NCBI RefSeq assembly: GCF_988243305.1
Contig: NZ_OZ547136.1
Length of the DNA stretch: 64,000 nt
Reading direction: 5' to 3' (one strand)
Shown here: piece after piece, positions 106 to 46,505 of the stretch
Layout of the letters: each line of letters opens with the position of its first letter
Numbering within the stretch: the stretch's first letter is position 1
Translations under genes and position numbers: made by a program
Notes under the pieces: model-generated
The model's input: only the letters and a program-made list of their open reading frames with translations
What the model was told of the DNA's origin: nothing
Database searches by the model: none

Positions 106-588
106 TTACGCATTTTTGTTTGTGGTCAATACAAAATCTTCCAGAAGTTGCTGGCGTTCGCGCTTTCCCCACCAGGTCAACATCCTGGCCATTAATGGCC
201 AGTCAAGTACGGGTTCGGCGTGAGTAAGTAATCGACGTAACTGGACCATATCGGCTGTTCTGTCAGCCCGAATTAATTGAAAGATACGGCGCTCGTTAAT
301 TCTTCCACTATTGGCTAAAGCTCTTCCCAACGAGATACCTGTTGTTTGCTCCGGTTTTTTGTCCTGATGTCGGATGACATTCTTTCCTGCGCTCAGGCAA
401 AACACCATGCGCAAAAGAGCCTGCTGGTGACGTGGGTTTTCCCAACCAAAAGGTTGCACCAACCGATAAAACGCAGGGATATCGCGTAATTCATCAGGTT
501 CTGAAACACGTCTAATTTGCGCACATGCTCCATTATCCAGTTGTTGCCAGGCTCGATATAAAGCCATTGCATCAATTTCATCAGCCAT
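106..588 (-). CDS. casB: CasB/Cse2, Cascade small subunit (160 aa)
   Basis: ORF track 106..588 (-), 160 aa, the recalled length of E. coli CasB; 8-bp overlap with casA end, typical operon coupling. Confidence 0.9.
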   Translation of the reverse strand: MADEIDAMALYRAWQQLDNGACAQIRRVSEPDELRDIPAFYRLVQPFGWENPRHQQALLRMVFCLSAGKNVIRHQDKKPEQTTGISLGRALANSGRINERRIFQLIRADRTADMVQLRRLLTHAEPVLDWPLMARMLTWWGKRERQQLLEDFVLTTNKNA

Positions 589-2089
589 TTGATGGCCCTC
601 CTTGCGGTTTTAACTCCCGTAAATGTTTGTATAGCGTGGCGCGGGCAAGCGCTAATGTGCTTATTAATTTAGGATGATGTGCATAGGGAGCTACAGATTG
701 ATTAAATAGCATTTCACACAATTGATGAAGTTTGTCTCGTAAATCAGCTATTACCTCATCAGCCTGGGAAAAATTAATTTTCGCCAATACATCTGGAATT
801 AATAATTCACTCTGTCGATAGAAATGCCTTTCTGCAGTCTCATGAACAGAGACTCCGGCCCCTTTGAAGTCTTTATTTTTAAACCCTTCTGCAAAGGTAT
901 ATAACGCCTTGCGTAAGGCTGTTTTATACCCCAAACCAACAGTCACTATTTCGTTTATAACATTGCCGTATTGTTGCCACCCCTGATTAAACATCAGCAC
1001 ATCATGACGTCGTTCAAGAATAGATGCTTGATTATTACGATATCCCCCCATAATCAATTCAAGAGGACTTTGCGGCGCAATATTTCTGAATTGATTCACA
1101 ACCGCCGCCACGCGATTTCCATTTTCATTTTGAATAATCTTATCTACCACAACTCGGCTGATTTGCGTCCATGATGGTGCGGAGGTGGTGAAAGCAAGAA
1201 ATTTTTCCTCAACCTTCCCTTTCTTGACTGTTACCAGACAAGGGGAATGCGGATGGGGCCATAGTCCATTAACTGTAAAGGTAAATTTTTCCTTAAGAAA
1301 ACCGGTATAACGCAAATTGCTTTCCTGTCCACAGCAAGAACATTTACCAATCCCAATGGGATCGCATAGTTCAATATGCGCTGGTTGCCAGAATAAACCA
1401 CGGACAAACCCAATTGACGAAGCTGGCACAGATTCATTGGGCTTGATAGGCTTAATCCAGGTAGGTTGGTTTTCCGTATGTAATTCATTGGGAAATTGTT
1501 TTTGAAGACGAGGTATTGTGAGGACATTGAGTAATACCGTCGAGCGAAGATCGATCCCACATACGAAGGTGGTTATAGGTGTTCCTCCACGTAAACCGCT
1601 TTTAAAGCCACCACCAAAACCAGGTGCCTGATTCGCCTGGTTGAATAACGCAATCGCAGTGCATCCACCACATAATGCTTCACCCTGCCCCGGTTGATTG
1701 ACAAATGCACAATTCGTCGCGCCGCTTACCCCAGCCAACAGTTTTTCCATTGGAGTCACATCATTTGCTTTGACACCTTTGGTCTGCATAAAGGGATGTT
1801 CTGCGTGATTAAGGTAGAACATATCTATCCACGGCGCGATGAGTTGTTGAAACTCATCTTCAGTGAGCGGATTCATTATGCGATGTCGAAATTCAACGTC
1901 ATCTTTTGCCGGGGCGATAATTTGTCCAATGCAAACCAGCAGTGCTAAAGCGGCCAGTTCCATATCGTCACGGGGCAAACTTAATCGCCACTGATCTCTA
2001 CTGCAGTATAGCGATTGCAGATTTAGGATTTGGACTTTCCCCCCGTTTCGCGGGCGTACAGGGATCCAGTTATCAATAAGCAAATTCAT
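581..2089 (-). CDS. casA: CasA/Cse1, Cascade large subunit (502 aa)
   Basis: ORF track 581..2089 (-), 502 aa starting MNLLIDNWIPVRPRNGGKVQILNLQSL; length and position between cas3 and casB fit type I-E. Confidence 0.9.
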   Translation of the reverse strand: MNLLIDNWIPVRPRNGGKVQILNLQSLYCSRDQWRLSLPRDDMELAALALLVCIGQIIAPAKDDVEFRHRIMNPLTEDEFQQLIAPWIDMFYLNHAEHPFMQTKGVKANDVTPMEKLLAGVSGATNCAFVNQPGQGEALCGGCTAIALFNQANQAPGFGGGFKSGLRGGTPITTFVCGIDLRSTVLLNVLTIPRLQKQFPNELHTENQPTWIKPIKPNESVPASSIGFVRGLFWQPAHIELCDPIGIGKCSCCGQESNLRYTGFLKEKFTFTVNGLWPHPHSPCLVTVKKGKVEEKFLAFTTSAPSWTQISRVVVDKIIQNENGNRVAAVVNQFRNIAPQSPLELIMGGYRNNQASILERRHDVLMFNQGWQQYGNVINEIVTVGLGYKTALRKALYTFAEGFKNKDFKGAGVSVHETAERHFYRQSELLIPDVLAKINFSQADEVIADLRDKLHQLCEMLFNQSVAPYAHHPKLISTLALARATLYKHLRELKPQGGPSNG

Positions 2090-2504
2090 TTGTTCTCCTT
2101 CATATGCTCCGACATTTCTCCTGCATTTCTATACGTCGGAACACTTCCGTTATCGGTAAAAACAAAGAAAAAATACGGCGTAATTAATTCAATAATCACA
2201 TTCACTGCAAAAATATATTCATTGGTTTAATACAATTAACCTATGCATATATTAAGATGTGTTGAATTGTTTAAAGACAATAATGCATGCATTTCAAATC
2301 TGCAAGTTATTCGTTTTATTATCAAAGAAATTTTTTAGTTATAATAATTACCATAAATTTTATTACATAAAATATTCATACTGTGAATATAAAATCTCAT
2401 ACCGGGAAATTAAAAGAAGATGTACATTGTGCACCTTCCCTACTTAAGTAGGGATAAACCGTTATTGGTCTTGTTATCGTCATTGATACCAATCATTCCC
2501 GAAG
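2090..2504. promoter_or_regulatory. AT-rich cas3-casA intergenic region, expected site of the Cascade operon promoter (H-NS silenced, LeuO activated in E. coli)
   Basis: About 415 bp of strongly AT-rich, curved-looking DNA (runs such as ttattatcaaagaaattttttagttataataattaccataaattttattacataaaatattcatactgtgaatataaaat) directly upstream of casA; promoter identity is from established knowledge of the locus, exact -10/-35 not determined. Confidence 0.5.
2436..2461 (+). repeat. Solitary CRISPR-repeat-like palindrome (TTCCCTACTTAAGTAGGGATAAACCG) 44 bp downstream of cas3 stop
   Basis: Shares 5-prime TTCCC and 3-prime GGGATAAACCG with the I-E repeat GAGTTCCCCGCGCCAGCGGGGATAAACCG; central 16-bp perfect palindrome CCCTACTTAAGTAGGG replaces the repeat stem. 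Confidence 0.45.
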
Positions 2505-5171
2505 TTATTTGGGATTTGCAGGGATGACTCTGGTCATCCCTTCATCCCGAGTGTAGGTAATAACAATATTATTACCCTGCCAGATCCATCCATCCTGATT
2601 CTGTTTCCCTTCCAGCCAAAGTAACCCATCTTCATCTACTACTTCAGAAAAACTACGTTTCCAGGTGAAGGGTACATTGACGCGATTAAGTGCTAACGCC
2701 TCATACTGCTGTTCATGACTTAGGTCCTCGTAGACCTGGCCATCGAGCAGTTGTTTACCTGAAGACGTTTGTACATAAGGCAATAATGGCAGGCTCATTT
2801 CCCCATCCCTCGTTACCGCAAGAATGGTTTCATCGTTATCCTGCAAGCTATATTCTTCAGCCCACTGCAGAACCTTACGAGCCTTGAACCTTTTTTCACA
2901 CTCGGCGCTTTCAAACTTATCCATGCCTTTGATGACCCATTCTGGCTCATCCATTTCCGCATCATCGTAAATGCTATCCAGCCATTGCCGGTAGGCATCA
3001 GGGAAAAATAAGGATGCTCCATTAAGTTCCTCAATATGTTGCTGCGTCCGCCACATGACTCTAACGTTGCTATAAATATGCTCATGTCGTCCGTAACCTT
3101 CGCCATCAGGCAGCAAAATGGTGGCAAGAGGAATCTCAAAACCAACGGGGCGATATTTACGATGATGGCGATGTAAACGGCCCAATCGTTGGAAAAGCAA
3201 ATCTGCGGGACAATGCTGAGTAATTAACCAATCAAAATCAACGTCGAGTGATTGTTCCACGACCTGTGTGGCAACAAGTATTCTTCCAACATTTCGCTCC
3301 CCATTTTTCCCAAAATTACTAATAACACGATTCTCTTTTTCACGGCGATCGTTCAGCGTAAAGCGCGCATGAAACAAATCTATATCTACTTGCGTGTTAT
3401 TTAGTTCCTTTAACCGTTGGTGGCATAGTTGTGCAACATCAACCAAATTGCAGATAAGACAGACTTGTGCACCCGCATTTGCCGCTGCGATCATTCGCTC
3501 TAACATCGTAAGGTCAGGTAACATGTCAGCTAAATAAATAGGTTCTGGCTGAATCGAAAAGCGGGGCGGGAGTTGTTCTGGATGAGCTAACAGATCAAAA
3601 CGTTGCGCACCATTCACACCTCGCCAGTTAATGAGTGGATATGCGGAGTTATTTTCCTCTGGATCTGTATGCAGACCATAAGTATCCAGAAGTTTCTGTT
3701 TTTGTTTCATTGGTAGAGTTGCGGAAAGAAGAATAACACTCCCCCCCACATCAGCCTGAGCCTTGAGCACAGCCTCCAGCAAGCCGTTCATATACGTGTC
3801 GTAAGCATGAACTTCATCAACAATTAAAACACTTCGACCAATTCCCAAACCACGGATAAAGCGGTGTTTAACTGGCAATACCGATATCAACACCTGATCA
3901 ATCGTGCAAACGCCTATTTGCCCAAGAAACACTTTCTTATTGCTTTGTGACAACCATTGGCAACACTGAACCCACGCTTCTTCTTGCCCCTGCTCAGTAA
4001 ATGCGCGTGATTTTATTGATTGAAAAAGGTGGTTAAAACGTGAATTACCATGAGCAAGAATAAGATTTGGGGAGGTAAATAAACGGCTCGCGTTCGCTTC
4101 CATTCTGCTGAGCATTGCATTTGCAGTAGCTTGTGTAGGGAGGGCAAAAATAACACTATCCGCAAGTTGTTGGTCAATAAGTTTCCAGGCATAGGCCAGC
4201 GCTGTTTCGGTTTTACCTGATCCCGTAGGTGCCTCAATCACCGTCAGCCCGGGAGCTGTAGGAAGAGCATCAACCAACACCTGTAATTGTCTTGGTTGAT
4301 AGCCATTGTCCAGTAAGGCATGTACGCCGTCATAACTACGCTTATTTGATACAAGGCCACTCAACTCAAGTACCCGACACGCATCCTGTTGTCTATCCTG
4401 AAAATATTTTCTTAGCGCTTGTATGCCTGAAGGTGCATCTTCTTTGAATAGAAAGGTATCCGTTGTGGTCCAGGAACCTAACCAGTCAGCAAGCGAGCAA
4501 AAACCTGCTAACAATGATGAACAATCAGGTGGTATATCGTTTATAGATAACCCGGCTGGTGTTAAAAATAATGCTTCGAGTACAGATATCCACTCCTCAC
4601 GAGCCTGTTTATCTTGCGCAGCATAAGATGCCAGAGAAGCTGGCATTTCCCAACGCGACTTATCTTGATCCTGGGAATGTAATATAAAACCATGATGTCC
4701 TGTAACGGCCTCTACCCAAGGAAACCAGGACTCATAAGGATGAGGAGCGGCATCAAAAAAACTGAAAAAATCCCCGGGAGATTGCTCTGAAAGTGAATCC
4801 TGGTTAAACCAATACAGACCGGCTGCACCATGATTAAATTTACGGCACATTTGTGTTGATGGACCATTAAGTGATGGCGTTGCAGGATTTAATTTCAGCC
4901 AACTTTCTGCTGATTTATATTGGAATCGTATATCAAACTTTCCGATATCATGAAGGGCAATGAAAAATAACAGCCAGGCTTTCACCTTCTGTTTTGATAG
5001 CATTTCATTTCGGCAAAAAGCATTTTGTAGTACGACTGATTGATCCCACCAGCAATCTGCAACAGCTGCAACATCCAGGCAATGATAAATCAACAGATGA
5101 ATATCATTTCCTTTCGTCAGGCTTTTTGAGGATTTCCCCCAGTAATGACATATATATTTAAAAGGTTCCAT
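2505..5171 (-). CDS. cas3: Cas3 HD-nuclease/SF2 helicase (888 aa)
   Basis: ORF 888 aa; HD motif (ALHDIGKFD), Walker A (APTGSGKTE) and DEVH box (VDEVHAYD) visible in translation. Confidence 0.95.
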   Translation of the reverse strand: MEPFKYICHYWGKSSKSLTKGNDIHLLIYHCLDVAAVADCWWDQSVVLQNAFCRNEMLSKQKVKAWLLFFIALHDIGKFDIRFQYKSAESWLKLNPATPSLNGPSTQMCRKFNHGAAGLYWFNQDSLSEQSPGDFFSFFDAAPHPYESWFPWVEAVTGHHGFILHSQDQDKSRWEMPASLASYAAQDKQAREEWISVLEALFLTPAGLSINDIPPDCSSLLAGFCSLADWLGSWTTTDTFLFKEDAPSGIQALRKYFQDRQQDACRVLELSGLVSNKRSYDGVHALLDNGYQPRQLQVLVDALPTAPGLTVIEAPTGSGKTETALAYAWKLIDQQLADSVIFALPTQATANAMLSRMEANASRLFTSPNLILAHGNSRFNHLFQSIKSRAFTEQGQEEAWVQCCQWLSQSNKKVFLGQIGVCTIDQVLISVLPVKHRFIRGLGIGRSVLIVDEVHAYDTYMNGLLEAVLKAQADVGGSVILLSATLPMKQKQKLLDTYGLHTDPEENNSAYPLINWRGVNGAQRFDLLAHPEQLPPRFSIQPEPIYLADMLPDLTMLERMIAAANAGAQVCLICNLVDVAQLCHQRLKELNNTQVDIDLFHARFTLNDRREKENRVISNFGKNGERNVGRILVATQVVEQSLDVDFDWLITQHCPADLLFQRLGRLHRHHRKYRPVGFEIPLATILLPDGEGYGRHEHIYSNVRVMWRTQQHIEELNGASLFFPDAYRQWLDSIYDDAEMDEPEWVIKGMDKFESAECEKRFKARKVLQWAEEYSLQDNDETILAVTRDGEMSLPLLPYVQTSSGKQLLDGQVYEDLSHEQQYEALALNRVNVPFTWKRSFSEVVDEDGLLWLEGKQNQDGWIWQGNNIVITYTRDEGMTRVIPANPK

Positions 5172-5470
5172 TAATAGCCTCCCTGTTTTTTTAGTATTAT
5201 CGATGATATCAGTGGACTATTTTTCGATGCTGCTCATAAATATCGAATTACAGTGATATACACATGTCTTGCCTCCCTGCAAAGAAGAGACTAACATTCG
5301 AATTGCTTAGGTTCGAACGCTGGCCTCAGGTTGATAGAAATATCGCCTGGGGCTTTTGTCCATCTGGAACCTCGCGAATGCTTAACGCCAGACAGCCTCA
5401 AGCACCCAACGCCATTCTATACCTGATAATTCTTCCAGCGGCGTTCACGTTTAAAATCAGGAATGCTGCT

Positions 5471-21324: not shown

Positions 21325-21370
21325 GTGAGGAAGGCCGGGCGGGAAACTGCCCGGCCTGAACATACCTGAA

Positions 21371-21508
21371 TGGTTATCCCCGCTGACGTGGGGAACATAA
21401 GTTCGACAACTTAAAAAATGATAACAAGTCCGGTTTATCCCCGCTGATGCAGGGAACATAATAAAAACTTTAACTAGTTCGGTTTATCCCTGTTGTTACA
21501 AGGAATAT
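21371..21508 (-). CRISPR. Degenerate CRISPR remnant: 3 decayed type I-E repeats with 32-bp and 20-bp spacers
   Basis: Plus-strand repeats tggttatccccgctgacgtggggaacat (21371-21398), cggtttatccccgctgatgcagggaacat (21431-21459), cggtttatccctgttgttacaaggaatat (21480-21508). Confidence 0.6.
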
Positions 21509-21962: not shown

Positions 21963-22418
21963 TGGTTTATCCCCGCTGGCGCGGGGAACTCCGTCAGTGT
22001 GCCAGTTGCTACTGTTTCCCATACGGTTTATCCCCGCTGACGCGGGGAACTCATCAGTGATATCCAACATTGCGGAGCTAAACGCGGTTTATCCCCGCTG
22101 GCGCGGGGAACTCTATAAATGTGCCATATACGGCGTTTGTTGCCTCGGTTTATCCCCGCTGGCGCGGGGAACTCCTCCCGGTGATGCGGGTTATGTGGCC
22201 TGCCGCCGGTTTATCCCCGCTGGCGCGGGGAACTCTTCGCCGCGTCAACAATTCGGACCTGTAAATCCGGTTTATCCCCGCTGGCGCGGGGAACTCATCC
22301 GGCGAACGCGCTACAGAGTACAGTTCACCGGTTTATCCCCGCTGGCGCGGGGAACTCGGAAACCGCCCCGGCGGTGGTTAGCTGTTTGCCGGTTTATCCC
22401 CGCTGGCGCGGGGAACTC
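21963..22418 (-). CRISPR. Type I-E CRISPR array, 8 repeats (29 bp) and 7 spacers (32 bp each)
   Basis: Plus-strand repeat cggtttatccccgctggcgcggggaactc at 21963, 22024, 22085, 22146, 22207, 22268, 22329, 22390; reverse complement is the canonical E. coli repeat, so crRNA is from the minus strand. Repeat at 21963 starts with t, repeat at 22024 has gctgAcgc. Confidence 0.95.
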
Positions 22419-46094: not shown

Positions 46095-46140
46095 AAAGCA
46101 ACCTCAATAAGAAAAACTGCCGCGAAGGATAGCAGGAATA

Positions 46141-46505
46141 AAAAAAGGGAGCACTGTATTCACAGTGCTCCCGGTTCGTTTCGCAGCATTCCAGCTACTT
46201 TTGTTGCTCCCTGCTCATCCTTGACAACTTTTCCTCTGGCCTTGCGGCCAATCGTTCATCCTGAACTATTGCTTCCTGCTCACACCACCCCGATGTGATA
46301 CTTCATCCTGAAGTGTCCCTGGCCTTCCTGACCCACCGAATCATCCTGACCGGTTCTCATTCTCCATCCTGGAGGTGTCCTTTAACGCGTCCTGCGTCAT
46401 CCTCTTCGCTTCATCCAGAAGCCTTTCCCTGAAACACCATCCTGGTGTGTCCTTCAGAAGTGTCATCATCCTGATGTTCACTTCGTTGTCTGACTCCCTG
46501 TCGAC
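46141..46505 (-). ncRNA. csrB: CsrB small RNA (CsrA-sequestering), about 365 nt
   Basis: Minus strand begins GUCGACAGGGAGUCAGACAACGAAG... and carries about 18 CAGGA(U/A)G-type GGA motifs (plus-strand catcctg/ttcctg/tccctg); ends in terminator hairpin gggagcactg-tattca-cagtgctccc plus U-run. Confidence 0.85.

Follow-up and report, generated by a model that had tools for sequence, protein, structure and literature searches.

Why should a palindrome that resembles a CRISPR repeat stand between cas3 and casA in Escherichia coli? The question is raised by a stretch of 64,000 nucleotides of contig NZ_OZ547136.1 (NCBI RefSeq assembly GCF_988243305.1), referred to here as the window, which holds a K-12-type E. 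coli type I-E locus. A first-pass annotation, made from the letters alone, had described TTCCCTACTTAAGTAGGGATAAACCG at 2436–2461 on the plus strand as an orphan mimic of the I-E repeat, and the motif is present there exactly as written. The observation is real and not a product of chance. However, the motif is neither an orphan nor a mere mimic, as it belongs to a repeat–spacer–repeat mini-array with a second unit 60 nt downstream and an AAG-flanked, seed-perfect partial target. With a probability of about 65%, we read it as PsiR1, the first repeat of a degenerate two-repeat mini-CRISPR, and the mini-array as a CreR-type gene for a CRISPR RNA (crRNA)-like molecule, which lies antisense to cas3/casA and would guide autorepression by Cascade. 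The earlier interpretation is hence partly supported: a repeat-derived, antisense element in a regulatory context had been recognized correctly, and the second repeat, the spacer and the target had been missed.

The motif derives from the I-E repeat, and chance is excluded by pattern counts far above expectation. The 11-mer GGGATAAACCG occurs 10 times in the window, where 0.01 copies are expected; nine of these lie in true arrays and the tenth is the motif. Likewise, the pattern TTCCC-N10-GGGAT was found 12 times (0.04 expected), with 10 copies in arrays and the other two on the plus strand at 2436 and 2496. Plain sequence identity is a poor guide, as two unrelated sites in the window equal the ungapped match of PsiR1 to the repeat, 19 of 29 positions. 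The signal thus resides in the hairpin register and the exact handle rather than in overall similarity, and a structure-aware pattern was used for this reason. Two in-register repeat units 60 nt apart occur within the 64 kb only here and in the true arrays. Comparison with the crRNA sense of the genuine array confirms that the motif is in crRNA sense on the plus strand and antisense to the cas operon, and its location 44–69 nt past the cas3 stop codon, inside the 415-bp cas3–casA gap, bears out the proposed placement in the regulatory region.

The genuine repeat, PsiR1 and PsiR2 share the same fold, ....(((((((....)))))))......., a 7-bp hairpin with a tetraloop, at −15.1, −10.3 and −8.5 kcal/mol, respectively. 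In the repeat, pairing extends from U5–A22 to C11–G16. It had been claimed that another, perfect palindrome replaces the repeat's stem CCCCGCG/CGCGGGG. The replacement and the perfect palindrome stand, whereas the stem boundaries had to be redrawn: the repeat forms (U)CCCCGC/GCGGGG(A) around the loop GCCA, and the motif forms (U)CCCUAC/GUAGGG(A) around the loop UUAA. We aligned the stems of the repeat with those of PsiR1 and PsiR2 from E. coli and from two related loci, a metagenomic contig (L086, Cas3 62% identical) and a Salmonella-like locus (L085, the closest Cas3 relative, 72% identical). In this alignment 97.6% of the stem cells are paired, and pairing falls to 24–62% when the 3' partners are slid by one to three columns. 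The three upper stem pairs change on both sides (C-G to U-A, G-U or U-G; G-C to A-U; C-G to A-U), and the three bottom C-G pairs together with A22/T23 are invariant across the aligned units. Cas6e (CasE) reads the base of the stem and the nucleotides at the scissile site, and it cleaves at the 3' base of the stem. The conservation pattern fits selection for Cas6e recognition, and by analogy with the genuine repeat a cut in PsiR1 would be expected after G2453.

The second unit, PsiR2, has kept the hairpin and lost the handle part. Its repeat-like core TTCCCGAAGTTATTTGGGAT (2496–2515) spans the cas3 stop codon, which lies at 2505–2507 in the loop region, so that the last 17 nt of cas3 fall within PsiR2 and the 3' half of the repeat encodes the C-terminal NPK of Cas3. 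Only three Cas3 proteins end in NPK, namely that of the window and two homologs (P0002 and P0003), and their genes run into PsiR2; other close homologs end at or near the IP motif, with tails that are unrelated. It appears, therefore, that Cas3 takes its last codons from a degenerate repeat. Directly 3' of PsiR2, within the cas3 codons for GMTRVIP, we also noted a perfect 8-bp hairpin, GGGATGAC-TCTG-GTCATCCC (2522–2541, plus strand), the equivalents of which pair in L086 and L085 too. It could mark the 3' end of an antisense RNA or reflect the conserved GM...IP protein motif.

Between the two units lies the 31-nt spacer-like PsiS, which was compared with all 6542 sites of the window that follow an interference-proficient protospacer adjacent motif (PAM). 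The best site starts at 2307 on the plus strand, 155 nt upstream of the spacer in the same intergenic region. It matches all seven informative seed positions (1–5, 7 and 8); of the 15 informative positions within the first 18 it matches 14, and the runner-up 11. A score of 14 was reached by none of 5000 dinucleotide-shuffled intergenic regions and by none of 5000 shuffled spacers. The resulting 17-nt duplex has mismatches at spacer positions 6, 9 and 12. In Cascade, positions 6 and 12 are flipped out and do not pair. Shmakov et al. describe them likewise as unpaired, with mismatches tolerated at every sixth position (10.1101/2023.03.03.530964). Beyond position 17 of 31 there is essentially no complementarity, so that the PAM-distal match is incomplete. 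Such a partial match may be a design that permits binding without cleavage by Cas3.

Table 1. Features of the mini-array and its surroundings in the window, and corresponding loci elsewhere
Feature	Position or locus	Strand	Basis and remarks
PsiR1, first degenerate repeat ACCTTCCCTACTTAAGTAGGGATAAACCG	2433..2461	+	19/29 to the I-E repeat; 3' 11 nt exactly GGGATAAACCG; motif first noted = 2436–2461
Predicted 8-nt 5' handle ATAAACCG	2454..2461	+	Same letters as the end of the genuine repeat that encodes the handle
PsiS, 31-nt spacer-like segment TTATTGGTCTTGTTATCGTCATTGATACCAA	2462..2492	+	Between two in-register units 60 nt apart
PsiR2, second degenerate repeat TCATTCCCGAAGTTATTTGGGATTTGCAG	2493..2521	+	TTCCC-N10-GGGAT match; hairpin kept, handle part lost
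Predicted mature crRNA-like RNA, 60 nt (8-nt 5' handle, 31-nt PsiS, 21-nt 3' hairpin handle)	2454..2513	+	Hairpin positions and known Cas6e site
AAG PAM of predicted target	2304..2306	+	Best PsiS match; invariant in 10 strains
Predicted protospacer	2307..2337	+	Matched part 2307–2323, TTATTCGTTTTATTATC vs PsiS TTATTGGTCTTGTTATC
Promoter-like hexamer pairs and perfect TATAAT (2340–2345)	2293..2348	+	Consensus scan; overlap or abut the predicted target
casA/cse1	581..2089	-	Open reading frame; RefSeq annotation of identical loci
cas3	2505..5171	-	Open reading frame, homologs and Pfam domains; RefSeq annotation of identical loci; convergent with the mini-array
Genuine CRISPR array, 8 repeats	21963..22418	- (crRNA sense)	Source of the canonical I-E repeat GAGTTCCCCGCGCCAGCGGGGATAAACCG used for comparison
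Eleven mini-array loci	L006, L023, L030, L033, L045, L049, L052, L063, L064, L073, L086	Opposite cas3	Hairpin-plus-handle scan

Within E. coli, the intergenic region is carried by 1133 of 5426 complete genomes. Over region 2080–2540, identity is 100% with strain Z1323HEC0462 and 98.3% with MG1655; the strain at hand is not K-12 itself. From the 1133 genomes we aligned ten strains that span their identity range. Variation was seen in 20 of 461 columns, none of them in PsiR1, in the PAM or in positions 1–11 of spacer and target. Spacer positions 12 and 28 and target position 17 vary, and PsiR2 varies once, at the closing U5. Three linked substitutions, at 2323 (target 17), 2473 (spacer 12) and 2489 (spacer 28), define two haplotypes, the second of which comprises K-12 and its relatives, and 14 of the 17 positions are paired in both. 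One strain, E. coli H9Ecoli, has IS1 inside the mini-array spacer (equivalent to about 2486) and a casA pseudogene, i.e. its locus is being dismantled. In E. coli O157:H7, which carries the second E. coli I-E variant, the cas3–casA gap measures 97 bp and contains nothing repeat-like.

Does the arrangement recur outside E. coli? Among the matches listed in a search of genome contigs, most came from distant I-E loci and not from Escherichia or Salmonella, and close relatives were found by exact-protein look-up. In L086, a unit GTGTTCCCTACACATGTGGGGATAAACCG occupies the same place and orientation and is followed by a different spacer, TAGTTCTCTTTCTACTT..., and by the same PsiR2 over the cas3 stop codon. 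This locus has its own AAG-flanked target, TAGTTATCTCTGTACTT, with mismatches at positions 6, 10, 12 and 18. PsiR2 is conserved in L085 as well, where the mini-array is nevertheless a decayed copy with a bulged stem and a 1-nt deletion in the handle, and where no target was found in any register. In Atlantibacter, no element was seen in the 31-bp gap between cas3 and cse1.

A scan of 83 diverse I-E loci with the hairpin-plus-handle pattern revealed single units opposite to the cas3 strand and just downstream of cas3, about 45–240 nt from its stop codon, in 10 loci, and an eleventh unit farther off. Each of the eleven is followed about 31–33 nt later by a second hairpin-bearing unit. With the window included, the best seed match within the 450 nt upstream lies on the same strand and has a flanking AAG in 12 of 12 loci, although no PAM had been imposed. 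Each locus has its own spacer–target pair, and spacers and targets thus co-vary between loci. For eight of the twelve, the target match was equalled by at most one of 300 shuffles. In 9 of 11 loci the target sits upstream of the cas8e start codon at 185–240 nt, whereas its distance from the mini-array ranges from 38 to 126 nt, which suggests that it is positioned relative to the cas8e promoter. The first-pass annotation had named chance similarity as the likely explanation should the motif lack conservation in related I-E loci and the plus strand lack transcription. This test fails to refute the motif, as E. coli strains conserve the element and related I-E loci carry it too.

Taken together, the sequence features of a CreR-type gene are found: a unit–spacer–unit arrangement in the cas gap, a handle and hairpins, a PAM-flanked partial target with an incomplete PAM-distal match, and recurrence in other loci. 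Transcription we infer from the literature. In E. coli K-12, anti-Pcas was described by Pul et al. (2010), as summarized in PMC7074321 and PMC10011333, as a promoter in the cas3–casA region opposite to Pcas that yields an RNA of 150–200 nt; in these summaries the RNA overlaps the cas3 transcript, is repressed by H-NS and is predicted to be highly structured. The proposal that the motif is part of an antisense transcript is plausible. In the window, the promoter-like hexamers near the target (Table 1) are not enriched over shuffles of this AT-rich region and are therefore treated only as candidates for an anti-Pcas promoter that drives the mini-array.

A plus-strand transcript from the cas3–casA region, probably the 150–200-nt anti-Pcas RNA, would run through PsiR1, PsiS and PsiR2. 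Cas6e might then recognize both hairpins and cut at their 3' bases, releasing an RNA of about 60 nt, in which a 31-nt guide is flanked by the 8-nt handle AUAAACCG and a 3' hairpin and which could be loaded by Cascade. The loaded complex would be expected to bind the AAG-flanked site at 2304–2323, which precedes the casA start codon by about 215 nt. As only the PAM-proximal 17 nt would pair, the R-loop would stay incomplete and Cas3 would not be licensed, and Cascade would act as a repressor and not as a nuclease. Transcription from the divergent promoter region would thereby be repressed, and Cascade would feed back negatively on the region of its own promoter, probably also on the promoter of the mini-array. 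Repression might be relieved by abundant ordinary crRNAs or by anti-CRISPRs that titrate or inactivate Cascade.

Several observations weigh against this reading. In the spacer–target duplex, the mismatch at position 9 is not silent, and the target is about 215 nt away from the casA ATG. The two E. coli haplotypes differ at target 17 and spacer 12 without clear compensation. Among the twelve comparative targets, three (L006, L030 and L049) are not individually significant against shuffles. The upper stem and loop of PsiR1 differ from those of the repeat, and Cas6e is assumed to tolerate these changes. H-NS silences the locus in laboratory K-12 (PMC7074321, PMC10011333), and any loop would thus run only when derepressed. 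Finally, when Liu et al. placed the Salmonella CreR in MG1655 as host, they mentioned no native one (10.1101/2023.03.10.532045).

Alternatively, the element might be a decaying, functionless remnant of a mini-array or of an ectopic repeat insertion, its likeness to the repeat being purely historical. Both repeats are degenerate, the sister lineage L085 is visibly decayed and lacks a target, one strain carries IS1 within the spacer, and the locus is H-NS-silenced in K-12. Moreover, according to Shmakov et al. such repeats arise sporadically (10.1101/2023.03.03.530964). The first-pass annotation had likewise offered a fossil repeat as one possibility. Decay, however, should break hairpins, whereas all five pair changes in PsiR1 and PsiR2 keep the pairing. 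The handle is exact, and an AAG-flanked seed-perfect target is found that exceeds what 5000 shuffles produced. Among the ten strains, the region varies elsewhere but shows no change in handle, PAM or seed, and independent loci have kept the design with different spacer–target pairs. L085 serves as a contrast case, as it shows what a real fossil looks like. For E. coli, we hence regard a remnant as unlikely. A functional, if orphan, CRISPR array was rejected as well, since the repeats match the consensus at no more than 19 of 29 positions and all ten strains carry the same single spacer.

The structured part of anti-Pcas might instead act on cas3 without Cascade, be it by pairing with the 3' end of the cas3 mRNA, by interference through convergent transcription or by an effect on termination or translation. 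The discoverers of anti-Pcas made such a proposal (summarized in PMC10011333), the transcript would overlap the cas3 stop and last codons, and a further conserved hairpin follows PsiR2 inside cas3. Yet this would leave unexplained the handle, the hairpins in repeat register, the CRISPR-like spacing, the PAM-flanked target and the recurrence in other loci. As a sole explanation we consider it rather improbable; as a second effect it could coexist with Cascade autorepression. Still less credit can be given to the idea that the palindrome serves on the minus strand as a cas3 terminator or an mRNA-stabilizing 3' hairpin and resembles a repeat only incidentally. It is a perfect 16-bp palindrome 47 nt past the cas3 stop, and the hairpin would also form in the cas3 mRNA. 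However, no U-tract comes after it on either strand, and the handle, the second unit and the target would remain without a role. An intrinsic, Rho-independent terminator of cas3 was rejected, as the scan of 2000–2700 returned no terminator-like site on either strand. Chance resemblance in AT-rich intergenic DNA, finally, could draw on the two unrelated sites that equal PsiR1 in plain identity. It is refuted by the motif counts, with expected values of 0.01 and 0.04 per window, and by the conservation, and the second unit and the target speak against it too; its probability is practically negligible.

Autorepression by mini-arrays or CreR is already known: it has been predicted for E. coli I-E and demonstrated for Salmonella I-E and for types I-B, I-F and V-A. 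The value of the present analysis thus lies in confirmation and detail, not in discovery. Shmakov et al. (2023) reported two-repeat mini-arrays between cas3 and cas8 in about 19% of bacterial I-E loci, with transcription running against cas3 and with partial, AAG-flanked targets at the cas8 promoter (10.1101/2023.03.03.530964; NAR 51:8150). The element described here agrees with these in its location between cas3 and cas8e/casA, its anti-cas3 sense, a seed-side repeat that is better preserved and a distal one that is degraded, and in a partial seed-proximal match with an AAG PAM beside the cas8e promoter. Their BLASTN filter, as described, asked for at least 16 matching bases, whereas the contiguous match of PsiR1 is 11 nt long. 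For "the E. coli I-E locus" they described a target that overlaps an H-NS site just upstream of Pcas (10.1101/2023.03.03.530964). This example presumably is the K-12-type locus, because the O157:H7 variant has only its short gap and no repeat-like element. Very probably, the present element has hence been predicted before for this locus, the identity of the two sequences being our inference.

For the I-E system of Salmonella enterica, Liu et al. (2023) showed that CreR represses PcasA by means of E. coli Cascade, and that overexpression of a crRNA or AcrIE8 relieves the repression (10.1101/2023.03.10.532045). As in the window, a degenerate mini-CRISPR of PsiR1, PsiS and PsiR2 occupies the cas locus, with the 8-nt handle retained in PsiR1 and the hairpin in PsiR2, and a partial AAG target is found upstream of casA without a linked toxin gene. 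In contrast, the Salmonella guide matches 15 consecutive nucleotides about 140 bp upstream of casA, whereas the match in the window is interrupted (14 of the first 17 positions) and lies about 215 bp upstream. The overlap of PsiR2 with the cas3 stop codon also sets the present element apart from the Salmonella CreR. A 2026 preprint describes phage mimics of the Salmonella I-E CreR. We looked for "Cracr"-like mimics of the present element as well: BLAST of 2425–2525 against phages and plasmids gave only noise, and the exact handle-plus-seed pattern was absent from viral contigs. Similarly, Rfam 15 returned nothing at gathering thresholds in 2280–2560, only noise with E above 0.4.

CreTA of haloarchaeal I-B systems likewise uses a degenerate repeat–spacer–repeat RNA, the partial complementarity of which makes Cascade a transcriptional repressor. 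In CreTA this RNA is the antitoxin CreA and the repressed gene is a toxin, and no such toxin partner was found here. A sok antitoxin RNA (Rfam RF01794, 104 bits) lies directly upstream of cas3 at 5251–5407 on the minus strand, and a Hok/Gef open reading frame (ORF) is annotated in related genomes; as a CreT-like target this module was rejected, since the spacer has no match there. On the plus strand, this strain alone has a 62-amino acid (aa) ORF that extends from the target region as far as a TAA stop in the PsiR1 loop (2259–2447). The nine other strains lack T2331 and have instead a 28-aa hydrophobic ORF from the ATG at 2283 (MHAFQICKLFVLLSKKLLVIIITINFIT), without a Shine-Dalgarno sequence. 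A toxin encoded over the target was rejected for these reasons: a 1-nt indel makes the ORF strain-specific, it lacks a Shine-Dalgarno sequence, and its conservation does not extend to L086. With hok/sok unmatched and the target-overlapping plus-strand ORF frameshifted between strains and absent in L086, a CreTA module was also dismissed. The ORF is probably an accident of AT-rich DNA.

Elsewhere in the window, a degenerate three-repeat array occupies 21370–21508 on the minus strand, about 450 bp from the genuine array, with spacers of 20 nt and 32 nt. Its unit ATATTCCTTGTAACAACAGGGATAAACCG (21480–21508) resembles PsiR1 in that it combines a full hairpin, kept by compensatory changes, with an exact handle. 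As a second regulator this array was rejected, because no convincing PAM-flanked target was seen in the window for either spacer. The CsrB small RNA gene (46137–46496, minus strand; Rfam RF00018, 383 bits) is ordinary and unrelated to the mini-array.

What, then, would the mini-array mean for E. coli? Reviews of 2020 and 2023 list the role of anti-Pcas as unknown (PMC7074321, PMC10011333), and the text of Shmakov et al. does not mention it. Connecting the two is therefore the only modestly new point of this work. We may speculate, at somewhat less than even odds, that in E. coli K-12 a native CreR is made from the anti-Pcas RNA as its precursor, and that a built-in autorepression loop of Cascade has gone experimentally unnoticed. 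The anti-Pcas transcript would thereby gain a function. E. coli K-12 serves as the reference organism for CRISPR of type I-E, and if the reading holds, its Cascade level after derepression would be set by feedback, beyond H-NS, LeuO and CRP. With silencing by H-NS removed, the loop would act as a sensor of crRNA load and of anti-CRISPRs. Many engineered strains in which a constitutive promoter replaces cas3 and Pcas would have lost it, and Δhns experiments with native promoters would thus differ in kind from those in promoter-replacement strains without the element. Furthermore, a distal repeat that lies in the cas3 stop codon and encodes the clade-specific NPK would physically couple expression of the cas3 3' end to the regulator via convergent transcription.

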